Source: Candidatus Yanofskybacteria bacterium (lineage in GTDB: Bacteria > Patescibacteriota > Minisyncoccia > 2-02-FULL-40-12 > GWA2-44-9). Taken from it: DNA of 61,722 bases. Both the position numbers and the translations under genes were made by a program. This document shows, piece by piece, positions 35,368 through 38,400 of the stretch. Each line of letters opens with the position of its first letter. The first letter of the stretch is position 1. Location of the stretch: contig JACPAB010000004.1 in the NCBI GenBank assembly GCA_016181045.1, forward strand, positions 1 through 61,722, read 5' to 3'. A model generated the notes under the pieces. It saw only the letters and a list, made by a program, of their open reading frames with translations. It searched no databases and was not told where the DNA came from.

Positions 35368-35417
35368 TTAAGAGCAATTAACTAACCCGCCAAGGCGGGA
35401 TACTCGTTTGAAATATG

Positions 35418-35482
35418 CCAGGTAGTAGAAGTCCCGACTGCCTGGCGGCATTAATTAAAACATCGGGACTTTCACTACCTGG
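35418..35482 (+). repeat. 65-bp CCNGGTAGT-family hairpin element, copy 1
   Basis: CCAGGTAGTAGAAGTCCCGACTGCCTGGCGGCATTAATTAAAACATCGGGACTTTCACTACCTGG, flanked by TATG on both sides. Confidence 0.9.
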
Positions 35483-35483
35483 T

Positions 35484-38400
35484 ATGGCCGAAAAAGAACC
35501 CAAAACACAATCATATACAGCCAAAGATATCCAGGTTTTGGAGGGTTTGGAGCCCGTCCGCAAGAGGCCGGGGATGTATATCGGCTCAACCGGACCAGAT
35601 GGGCTTCACCACCTAATTTATGAGGTCGTTGATAACGGGATTGACGAATCACTGGCCGGTTTTGCCAAAAACATCGAAGTTGTACTTTTGGCCGGAAATC
35701 AGATAAGAATCTCTGATGATGGTCGAGGCATTCCTACCGATATTCATCCCACTAAAAAGAAATCAGCTCTTGAAATTGCGGCGACGACTCTTCATGCCGG
35801 AGGTAAATTTGGCAGTGACACCTACAAGGTTTCCGGCGGTCTTCACGGTGTCGGCTTATCGGTGGTCAACGCGTTGTCAAAGTGGATGAAAATCGAGGTT
35901 CATCGCAAGCCGGATATCTATGCTCAAGAATATAAAATCGGCAAACCGCTTAACCCGGTTAAAAAAATCGGTTCAACCAAAAAGACGGGCACAATTGTGA
36001 CTTTCGAGCCCGACCCGGATATTTTCAAAGAAATTAATTTTGATCGCGATACGATTTTAAATCACCTCCGCCAGCAGGCCTATCTGACCAAGGGCGTTAA
36101 GGTCACGGTCAAAGACGAACGGAACCCGATAAAATATTTCAGCAAGAAACAAGATAAAGAAATAACCGAAGTTTTTAATTACACTTTTTATTTTGAAGGC
36201 GGGATCGTCTCATATATTGAATTCTTAAACCGAAACGAGGAAGCAAAACACAAGACGGTTTTTTATGTTGCCAAAGAGCAGGACAATATTTTTGTTGAGG
36301 TTGCCATGCAGTATGTGAACGAAATATCCGGCAAGGAATTAAGTTTTGCCAACAATGTCCATACGATCGAGGGGGGCATGCATTTAACCGGTTTTAAATC
36401 GGCCATTACCAGAACTTTGAACGATTATGCCCGCAAGAACAGTTTTCTTAAAGAAAAAGACGACAATCTGTCGGGTGACGACGTGAGAGAAGGTTTAACT
36501 TCAATTATTTCCGTTAAATTAAAAGACCCCCAATTTGAAGGACAAACAAAGGCAAAGTTAGGCACTCCCGATGCAAGAACTGCCGTAGAAACAGTCATTA
36601 ACACTGAATTTTCCGATTGGCTGGAAAGAAATCCTTTAGATGCCAGGCAAATTATGGAGAAGATAATCCTGGCCTCAAAGGCCAGGATGGCCGCTAAAGC
36701 CGCGCGGGAGACCGTTTTGCGCAAAGGCGCCCTCGAGGGTATGACCCTGCCGGGCAAGCTGGCCGACTGCTCAAGTCGAGATGCGTCCGAATCGGAGCTT
36801 TTCATAGTCGAGGGTGACTCGGCTGGCGGGTGTTTTTCTGGTGACACAAAAGTTGCTTTAACCGACGGACGAAATCTTTCTTTTAGAGAGTTGGTAGAGG
36901 AAAGTAAAAAAGGCATCGGGAATTATACCTATACCATTAAAGGAGACGGTAATATCGGAATTGCTCCGATATTACACCCAAGAATTACTAAGAGAAATAC
37001 AGAAGTTATAAAAATAACATTAGATAACGGCGAAGAAATAACTTGTACTCCAGACCACCTCTTTATGTTAAGAAACGGTAACTATAAAAAAGCCGAGGAG
37101 CTTAATTCAAAAGATTCACTAATGCCTCTCTACCGCAAAATTTCTAAAATTGGAGGCAGAATTACTATTGATGGATATGAAATGGTTTTGAACCCAGCAG
37201 AACATTATTGGCGTTTTACCCATGTTCTTGCCGATCAGTACAATTTAGACAATAGTGCTTACTCTAAAAACGACGGAGACACTCGCCATCATAAAGATTT
37301 TAGTAAGTTAAACAACAATCCCGATAATATAGTGAGAATGAATAAGCAAGATCATCTTCTTTATCATACAAAACATCTGTTTAAAACAGCATTTAGACTT
37401 GACGTTTTAGAAAAGTTAAGGAAAATAAGACAAAGCAAAGAATATAGAGAAAAAATAAGTAAAATAATGAGTTCTCCGGAAATGAGCGCCATGTTGAGCA
37501 GAAGAGCAAAAAAGCAATGGGAGAATCAAGGGTATAAGCTGTTTATGATTCAAAAATTCTTGGAATTTTACAATTCCAATCAAGAATACAGAACTGGAAA
37601 TAACGAGTTACTAAATAAGGTTCAAAAAGAATATTGGTCTAAAGATGAAAATAGAAAAAAACAAGCAAAAAAAGTTACGGAATTTTTCGCTAACCATCCT
37701 GAAAGAAAAGCGGACCTTTCTTTATTGGCAAAAAGCCAATGGAGCAGCTTGGAATTAAGGAATTGGAGAAGTGGGGAAACTAAAAAACAGTGGACCCAGA
37801 AATTTAGAGCTAAAAGAAGAGAAGCATATGATAAAACTTACAAAGAGAAAGCTCTGAAGTTGATGAAAGAGATTATTGAAAATAACGGGCAGTTTGATAT
37901 TGAAAATTACAACATTGAACGTTTAAAAAGAAGGGATAAATCGCTCTTAAGATATGACACTATTCGAGATAAATTTTTCTCCGGTAGTGATAAAGTAATT
38001 CAGGAGGCAGCTATTAGTTATAACCACAAGGTTATTAAAATCGAAAAACTAAAAGAAAAAGTAGATGCGTATGATATAGAAGTTCCGGGAACTCATAACT
38101 TTGCTTTAGCAAGCGGAGTGTTTGTTCATAACAGTTCGAAATCCGGGCGGAACAGAAAAACTCAAGCTATCTTGCCCTTGAAGGGAAAGATATTGAACGT
38201 CGAAAAAGCCCGTCTGGACAAAATGCTTGCTTCTCAGGAGATTCGCGCGCTTATTATCGCCATGGGCACGGCCATTGCCGAAGAATTCGACATCAACCGC
38301 CTTCGATACCACAAGATAATCATCATGACTGATGCTGACGTTGACGGCGCCCACATCAGGACCCTTCTTTTGACCTTGTTCTACCGGTATTTCCCCAAGG

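Follow-up and report, generated by a model that had tools for sequence, protein, structure and literature searches.

The window analysed here is a stretch of 61,722 nt (61.7 kb) from a Candidatus Yanofskybacteria genome (contig JACPAB010000004.1), in which gyrB follows a phenylalanyl-tRNA synthetase alpha-type gene (Pfam) and carries a 65 bp hairpin element exactly at its start. The gyrB reading frame (35415–38891, forward strand) has 1158 codons from an upstream ATG and 1135 from a second ATG at 35484, and its product contains the Pfam domains HATPase_c, DNA_gyraseB, Intein_splicing, Toprim and DNA_gyraseB_C. The element (copy 1, 35418–35482, forward strand) lies between these two ATGs and is flanked, as the original prediction for this locus had described, by a perfect 4 bp duplication, the left TATG (35414–35417, forward strand) containing the upstream ATG (35415–35417) and the right TATG (35483–35486, forward strand) containing the ancestral gyrB start codon (35484–35486). 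Element and one flank together measure 65 + 4 = 69 nt, both ATGs are therefore in frame, and reading from 35415 continues into gyrB with no stop up to 35484. Copy 1 is very probably a member of a structure-constrained family of mobile hairpins, moved in trans, which behaves like a MITE (miniature inverted-repeat transposable element).

In the closest relative the same site is empty. The nearest GyrB homologue (P0121, 77% identity) is identical in its first 34 residues to the window sequence read from the second ATG, and its contig (L121) has the same upstream gene, gctataat box and leader hairpin, followed by …gtaaaaTATGgccgaaaaagaaccc, in which a single TATG stands without an element, the empty site reading …TATGGCCGAAAAAG…. 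Of a 260-residue GyrB query, ~91% is covered by the top homologues, which is the query minus the 23 extra residues, and a matching N-terminal extension was present in none of the GyrB homologues inspected. The best relatives of both GyrB and MiaA are labelled Yanofskybacteria. The comparison of relatives shows the insertion of copy 1, the duplication of its target and an empty site, not a conserved leader, and vertical conservation of the hairpin at gyrB is rejected, since L121 has an empty site and the family is spread over other genes.

Three full-length copies of the element are present in the window at the positions first proposed for them, copy 1 being joined by copy 2 (45612–45676, reverse strand, 65 bp) and copy 3 (58423–58490, forward strand, 68 bp), all with the termini CCNGGTAGTAGA and TTCACTACCNGG when read in one orientation. 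They are the top three entries in a ranking of the inverted repeats of the window, the pattern GGTAGTRRA-N30-60-TYYACTACC matches three times in the window and 0 times in 100 dinucleotide-preserving shuffles, and a covariance model built on 119 family members recovered these three copies only (58–61 bits; 58.4, 60.7 and 58.7 bits for copies 1, 2 and 3), with nothing else above 15 bits bar a borderline palindrome described below. The 20 bp stem of copy 1 joins arms 35418–35437 and 35463–35482, has A·C as pair 10 and G·T as pair 11, and encloses an inner hairpin (TGCC-TGGC-GGCA) followed by an A/T-rich linker, the inner stems of the three copies differing from one another. The conserved 12 nt ends, the A·C/G·T mismatch and the complementary, variable inner stem on which the element had been recognised all hold, as does the covarying N of CCNGG, which is paired in 91% of family copies compared to 42% after shuffling. 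The small hairpin described at nt 22–34, reading AGA-first, is found in the three window copies but not as a family-wide rule, as its polarity is not fixed: in copies with a single inner hairpin it is found 21 times on the AGA side, 36 times on the opposite side and 5 times in the centre.

Copy 2 lies within the miaA frame, not between genes, and is translated as K-PGSRCSGCDFVARETPEHSLPG-K, that is PGSRCSGCDFVARETPEHSLPG plus a duplicated lysine; it is flanked by TTTG on both sides (45608–45611 and 45677–45680), the duplicated target on the miaA strand being CAAA. In an alignment of 18 MiaA proteins, 23 residues are unique to the window protein and the other 17 read …LHK/QGVSWKRL… across the site, which, to judge from the protein sequences, is empty in these 17 homologues. 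Copy 3 is flanked by TTCG and TTTG (3 of 4 positions matching) and overlaps the 3′ end of a RelA/SpoT-type gene (58483–60240, minus strand; Pfam), which now ends …SIAQTR-TAG with the TAG derived from the GTAG of the element. Removal of copy 3 and one flank copy would restore a putative ancestral end …SIAQT-TAA, followed by a terminator-like hairpin (GCGCCCGAGGCGC).

The pattern scans proposed at the outset returned many further copies. With one genome scanned per GTDB species, the exact pattern GGTAGTAGA-N32-56-TTCACTACCNGG gave at least 120 loci, about 115 of them real copies, whilst a metagenome scan, in which pairs 10–11 were left free because the first scan had fixed the mismatch, gave mostly chance matches and ~37 real copies. 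The family counts used below (126, 119, 121 and 149 copies) are of copies among the matches listed, each locus having been fetched as 8 kb. More than 150 further copies are present in public genomes and metagenomes, almost all of them in Patescibacteria (the candidate phyla radiation, CPR), under the labels Saccharibacteria, Yanofsky-, Nomura-, Portnoy-, Lipton-, Harrison-, Giovannoni-, Nealson-, Jorgensen-, Niyogi- and Gottesmanbacteria, and Paceibacteria. Two matches outside the CPR (L003 and L097) have no stem and were discarded as chance matches. Real copies with full stems also occur outside CPR labels at L074 and L080 (DATKUR01; Candidatus Humimicrobiaceae, Actinomycetota) and at L105 (CAYTIK01; Bdellovibrionales), these represent either mis-binned CPR contigs or transfer outside Patescibacteria. 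No copy, and so no sign of phage carriage, was found in 2.9 million viral contigs.

The element has no open reading frame (ORF) of its own and is mostly 65–76 bp long (56–94 bp in the pattern-selected set, typically 56–81 bp, with variants from 31 to ~130 bp). Pairs 1–9 of the stem are essentially fixed (CCNGGTAGT) and are invariably followed by A·C (pair 10), G·T (pair 11) and A-T (pair 12), and pairs 13–20 vary in sequence and are paired in 91–96% of copies, compared to 37–86% after shuffling. At pair 21 pairing is no better than in shuffled data, which puts the length of the stem at exactly 20 bp, built as 9-2-9 around the central mismatch. In the alignment of 119 copies, 97.7% of cells are paired versus 80.3% when shuffled, and 364 double-sided changes were counted versus 100.6 in shuffled data, a value reached in 0 of 500 shuffles, with no slid register coming close. 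Among the variable pairs G·U is no commoner than other mismatches (~20 vs. ~50 cells), a constraint at the DNA level therefore fits better than one at the RNA level. Of the ~37 metagenome copies, all but one carry AGA/GAA at the central mismatch; in the exception (L206) both mismatches have become A-T pairs and the TAAA flank duplication is retained. The covariance model found about ten more variants in the fetched loci, including copies with the termini CCCTGTAGTAGA…TTCACTACAGGG and a 31 nt mini-copy with a 5 bp duplication, and the same stem is found in versions of ~130 nt too. A single small hairpin lies in the interior of 62 copies, whilst 41 have two and 18 have none, and internal loops are enriched for CCNGG, the motif of the termini (23 of 121 interiors, 9.6 expected). 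No copy matches any Rfam 15 family at gathering thresholds (the whole window was scanned), and a relaxed Rfam search with copy 1 and its flanks returned sub-threshold matches alone, mostly to microRNA precursors, as for any long hairpin. We found no description of this hairpin family in the literature on CPR bacteria combined with MITE, palindromes, REPIN, RPE or the terminal sequences, it is apparently undescribed.

The evidence for mobility comes from the flanks. A perfect 4 bp duplication borders 71 of 126 copies and one with a single mismatch borders 16 more, compared to 2 of 126 in a shifted control. The duplicated target has the consensus YNNR, its first base being a pyrimidine in 121 and its fourth a purine in 103 of 126 right flanks, with weak additional symmetry around it (GG/YNNR/CC). 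The conserved ends mark where a short element with a 4 bp duplication truly ends, and do not belong to a longer, ordinary repeat. At L106 (5–128) one copy is nested in the loop of another with its own duplication, CTGG, and copies within one genome differ in their inner stems. Copies are dispersed, three in the 61.7 kb of the window and three to five loci in each of several metagenome-assembled genomes, at a density of about one per 20–50 kb or, as a rough estimate, 20–50 copies per Mb. The orthologous loci L044 and L063 share 74 of 75 positions of the element (98.7%) and 481 of 600 of the adjacent gene (80%), with upstream homology ending at the element boundary, which points to recent or repeated arrival at one site, or to very strong constraint. 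An argument for compensatory evolution in place at L001 and L049 was dropped, as the flanks show these to be different insertions. No transposase was seen among the ORFs of the window, in agreement with the original prediction, and ten ORFs that could not be named by eye were compared to Pfam, none of them is a transposase.

A few loci show arrangements of their own. Adjacent inverted pairs of elements lie 4–40 nt apart, for example at L024 (1189–1264 and 1269–1343) and L015 (6079–6152 and 6194–6266). At L049 (2699–2775) and L081 (148–224) a copy directly follows a tRNA gene (…GCAGCCCGA/CCAGG…), the first three bases of the element giving CCA after the discriminator base; the two 77 nt elements are identical and the downstream DNA has diverged. 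A GIY-YIG nuclease, which tied as the most recurrent neighbour (9 of ~117 loci), was considered as the mobilising enzyme and a general link was rejected, four of the nine loci being one conserved locus and the others lying at least 1.7 kb from the element. In that conserved locus, seen in four other genomes (L007, L043, L044 and L046), a dockerin-like gene (…YWTG*) is followed by an element and then the GIY-YIG gene, an order of which L063 shares the first two parts. The interiors and orientations of the elements differ between these loci, and only L046 has a lone element terminus directly after the GIY-YIG stop codon; a hot spot seems a better description of the locus than a general association. 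In the window, too, there is a small GIY-YIG nuclease gene (7389–7625), which follows a tRNA gene.

Across the family, copies are seen where the 4 bp duplication keeps the interrupted unit intact, as expected from purifying selection in a compact genome. At start codons 26 copies were found (N-ATG/element/N-ATG or its TTG equivalent, on an ORF of 60 residues or more), and the genes, identified by eye from their N-termini, include uvrB, dnaA, dnaB, leuS, trpS, alr, rpmE, ABC ATPases, a proton pyrophosphatase and gyrB, and are unrelated to each other (e.g. trpS at L106 and a small membrane protein at L023). With a perfect TATG duplication, 17 of 20 copies (85%) lie on the first start codon of such an ORF, against a background in which 5.7% of all YWTG sites and 26% of TATG sites outside gene interiors look like starts. 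At promoters about 20 copies read TTGA/element/TTGACx followed by a TAnnnT box (often TATAAT) 16–18 nt on, the insertions falling in the first four bases of the −35 hexamer, which the duplication rebuilds. About 20 long ORFs, that of copy 3 among them, stop at the element's own TAG (positions 6–8). Only 6 of 149 copies (~4%) are in gene interiors, all of them in frame and stop-free, reading PGS[R/E]…[S/L]LPG. A general in-frame rule for the family was rejected, since length + 4 is spread uniformly over the three frames (43/45/38).

These other genes bear on which gyrB start is used. Translation from the upstream ATG of the 26 start-codon copies ends in or just after the element in 18 and reads through in 8; as several of these genes are essential, the downstream ATG must generally work. 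By analogy, the downstream, ancestral ATG at 35484 is the likelier main start of gyrB, and a start at 35415 could yield a minor GyrB isoform 23 residues longer; the proposal that GyrB could start at either ATG is borne out by the frame, with the downstream one preferred. The gyrB leader folds as RNA at −53 kcal/mol (z = −7.3) and as DNA with z ~ −6 on both strands. The two TATG copies extend the base of the hairpin and both ATGs are therefore partly paired in the predicted RNA fold, not only the proximal one that the hairpin was thought to bury. When transcribed, the hairpin probably lowers or conditions gyrB initiation, as far as the modelled fold can tell. Upstream of the element, a predicted gyrB promoter (TTGATT-17-TATAAT with an upstream TG, 35339–35367, forward strand) is recognised by its match to the consensus, and a separate small hairpin (CCCGCCAAGGCGGG, CCCGCC-NNNN-GGCGGG, 35386–35399, forward strand) is possibly a gyrB leader element of this lineage, the gctataat box and a similar hairpin downstream of it recurring in the relatives L121 (hairpin ~388–401) and L122 (~2956–2976). 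By eye, no GGAGG-like Shine–Dalgarno sequence was seen between this hairpin and the gyrB ATG. An intein (window 36858–38132, residues 482–906, Pfam Intein_splicing) lies between the DNA_gyraseB and Toprim domains of GyrB and accounts for the 1135–1158 residue length of the ORF.

The element is a non-coding hairpin with a 20 bp stem, comprising nine conserved pairs, A·C and G·T, and nine further pairs of which eight covary, capped by 0–2 small hairpins, and we propose that it inserts at a 4 bp staggered cut, duplicating a YNNR target. Copy 1 entered the TATG of the gyrB start codon and duplicated the ATG. Copies would survive where the duplication rebuilds the unit that was cut, at a −35 hexamer, a start codon, or a stop codon or gene end, and those in gene interiors only in the one open frame, PGS…LPG. 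The mobilising enzyme would act in trans, a DDE-type transposase making 4 bp staggered cuts being our guess. The family resembles MITEs in its short, non-coding length, its terminal inverted repeats (12 conserved nt in a 20 bp stem) and fixed 4 bp duplication, and also in its empty sites (gyrB and miaA) and multiple dispersed copies per genome.

Several observations weigh against so simple an account. Neither the window nor ~0.9 Mb of CPR flanking DNA yielded an autonomous element or a transposase with these termini; 'MITE' therefore names a behaviour rather than a proven membership, and of the original 'MITE-like, non-autonomous' label it is the behaviour (inverted repeats, duplication, empty sites and dispersed copies) that stands, the parent element not having been found in the DNA examined. 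Start-codon copies are ~3-fold more frequent than under a null in which tetranucleotide preference and the avoidance of gene interiors are taken into account, and they are oriented 22:4 with the GAA end first relative to the gene, a bias confounded with a single subfamily that recurs (…GCTGCCNGGCAGC with an A/T-rich tract). The excess and the bias mean that selfish insertion plus survivorship may be incomplete as an explanation, and leave room for real targeting or host benefit. In addition, the 12 nt ends and central mismatch hardly vary between CPR lineages that are very divergent, and inner stems stay Watson–Crick paired even among copies of one genome. This is unlike an ordinary, decaying MITE and hints at recognition of the folded hairpin or at a host function.

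A host function is the strongest of the alternatives, and one compatible with a mobile hairpin family: the element would be an expression module used by the host (an RNase III site, translational gate or promoter insulator), with mobility its mode of spread and selection keeping copies at −35 boxes and start codons. The start-codon enrichment beyond the survivorship null (85% vs. 26%) and the 22:4 orientation speak for such use, as do the presence of the one subfamily at start codons in many lineages, the fixed stem length and central mismatch, an RNase III gene in the window, and the near-identity of the element at L044 and L063 next to a gene that has diverged. Selection at the RNA level would however tolerate G·U, which is not commoner than other mismatches, copies at stop codons and −35 boxes lack a clear orientation bias, and the bias at start codons cannot be separated from subfamily; we regard an expression module as less likely than not. 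A bolder version of the mobile hairpin reading, somewhat more doubtful again, is that the folded 9-2-9 hairpin is recognised through its A·C/G·T centre, is moved by a type of enzyme so far unconnected with such elements, and is actively directed to −35 hexamers and start codons across Patescibacteria, or has been co-opted there. If true, the family would be a superphylum-wide portable module on transcription and translation starts, and not mere junk DNA.

It is improbable that the family instead consists of elements of the repetitive extragenic palindromic kind (REP, and their hairpin-forming pairs, REPINs), moved as folded single-stranded DNA by a single-copy HUH transposase (a REP-associated tyrosine transposase, RAYT, IS200/IS605-like). 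GTAG stands at pairs 5–8 of each arm, the second arm reading CTAC on the same strand, and GTAG-tagged palindromes are said to form a known super-family. Both groups are imperfect palindromes that form a long hairpin, keep its structure above the sequence of the loop and presumably depend on an enzyme acting in trans, and the invariant central mismatch could mark a strand or a cleavage site. The robust 4 bp target duplication speaks against this origin, since to our knowledge HUH/Y1 transposition makes none. The hairpin family also differs from REPs in that its GTAG lies inside the stem, its copy number is lower (only about one copy per 20–50 kb), many copies sit on start codons and −35 boxes and not only in 3′ intergenic spacers, and a RAYT-like gene was noticed neither in the window nor in the protein clusters that recur in the flanking 8 kb loci.

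The original prediction had drawn attention to a cruciform-prone palindrome in the leader of a supercoiling-sensitive gene, and gyrB expression does respond to supercoiling in model bacteria. A gyrB-specific, supercoiling-sensing cruciform or leader hairpin would suit the position of copy 1 in the leader, over the start codon, but is very improbable: the palindrome is missing from the otherwise conserved leader of the closest relative, and the same family occupies the start codons of uvrB, dnaA, dnaB, leuS, trpS, alr, rpmE and others, and is found at many unrelated genes, inside miaA and after relA. The association with gyrB is incidental, because the closest relative lacks the element and similar copies stand at the start codons of other genes. 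Least probable of all, to the point that we reject it, is that the element is skipped in expression, by ribosome hopping (as in T4 gene 60 and mitochondrial byp elements) or RNA excision: in one frame the left end reads NGG-TAG within the hairpin, superficially like a take-off site, but the take-off codon NGG and landing codon N′GG differ, because N and N′ are complementary, all six credible gene-interior copies are in frame and stop-free, which would be needless if they were skipped, and most copies are intergenic.

Amongst known elements, the Correia elements of Neisseria (CREE/NEMIS) are likewise short, non-coding and dispersed, with inverted repeats and a target duplication, and often lie by or in transcription units. 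Correia elements are able to provide or modify promoters, and RNase III cleaves their hairpins in the transcript. The hairpin family differs from them in duplicating 4 bp (YNNR) and not TA, in keeping only the outer 12 nt whilst the inner half-stem covaries freely around an invariant central A·C/G·T, in spanning a superphylum and not a genus, and in having no known parent insertion sequence. The Rickettsia palindromic elements (RPEs) likewise insert in frame into genes and add a peptide, as in miaA and the five other PGS…LPG cases; the likeness is one of behaviour, the hairpin family being shorter, with ~4% of its copies inside genes, a clear target duplication and another host group. Integron attC sites, which are 57–141 nt long, are similar in size, have a conserved stem base and a variable stem and top kept by structure, and carry mismatches that make the two strands unequal. 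In contrast to attC sites, the elements lack RYYYAAC/GTTRRRY cores (their ends are CCNGGTAGTAGA…TTCACTACCNGG), are not in cassette arrays and have flank duplications, and no integron integrase was noticed near their copies. The combination of a 4–5 bp duplication and ends starting with CC presumably recalls the IS1380 family.

Other palindromes occur in the window. A 26 nt palindrome at 9761–9786 (CCTGGTAGTGTGTACACATTACCAGG, no strand assigned), just upstream of the transfer-messenger RNA gene (9828–10107), has element-like ends (CCTGGTAGTG…CATTACCAGG) and is not flanked by a duplication; with 15.2 bits and E = 0.026 in the covariance model, weak evidence, it may be an internally deleted copy of the element, or a chance match. 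A second palindromic family, centred on …ATTTATNNCACGA/TCGT…, has copies at 6520–6553, 7150–7180 and 45807–45842. One is a 34 nt perfect, intergenic palindrome; a 36 nt near-perfect copy is in frame in miaA (KSDLYYDRGINQM) and is common only to the closest homologue (P0002); the third is at the 5′ end of a PaaX-like ORF (MYFFHDRSINQ…), and the peptides are alike (YDRGINQ vs. HDRSINQ). A 28 nt perfect palindrome at 46413–46440 (CCCTCACACCTATGCATAGGTGTGAGGG) is also in frame in the N-terminal region of miaA (ALTPMHRCEG), where about half of the MiaA homologues have unrelated inserts of similar length. In total, miaA carries at least three palindromic inserts and one low-complexity insert.

Patescibacteria have tiny, gene-dense genomes that are generally thought to be poor in mobile DNA. 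The hairpin family is a marker of genome dynamics in these organisms, and also a source of annotation errors, in the form of spurious N-terminal extensions and stops and of odd peptide inserts. Essential enzymes gain peptide segments from it, MiaA certainly and GyrB possibly. By landing on −35 hexamers and start codons, its copies provide a free map of promoters and true starts in uncultivated lineages, and for organisms in which genetic work is very difficult, the element might offer a common handle on gene expression.

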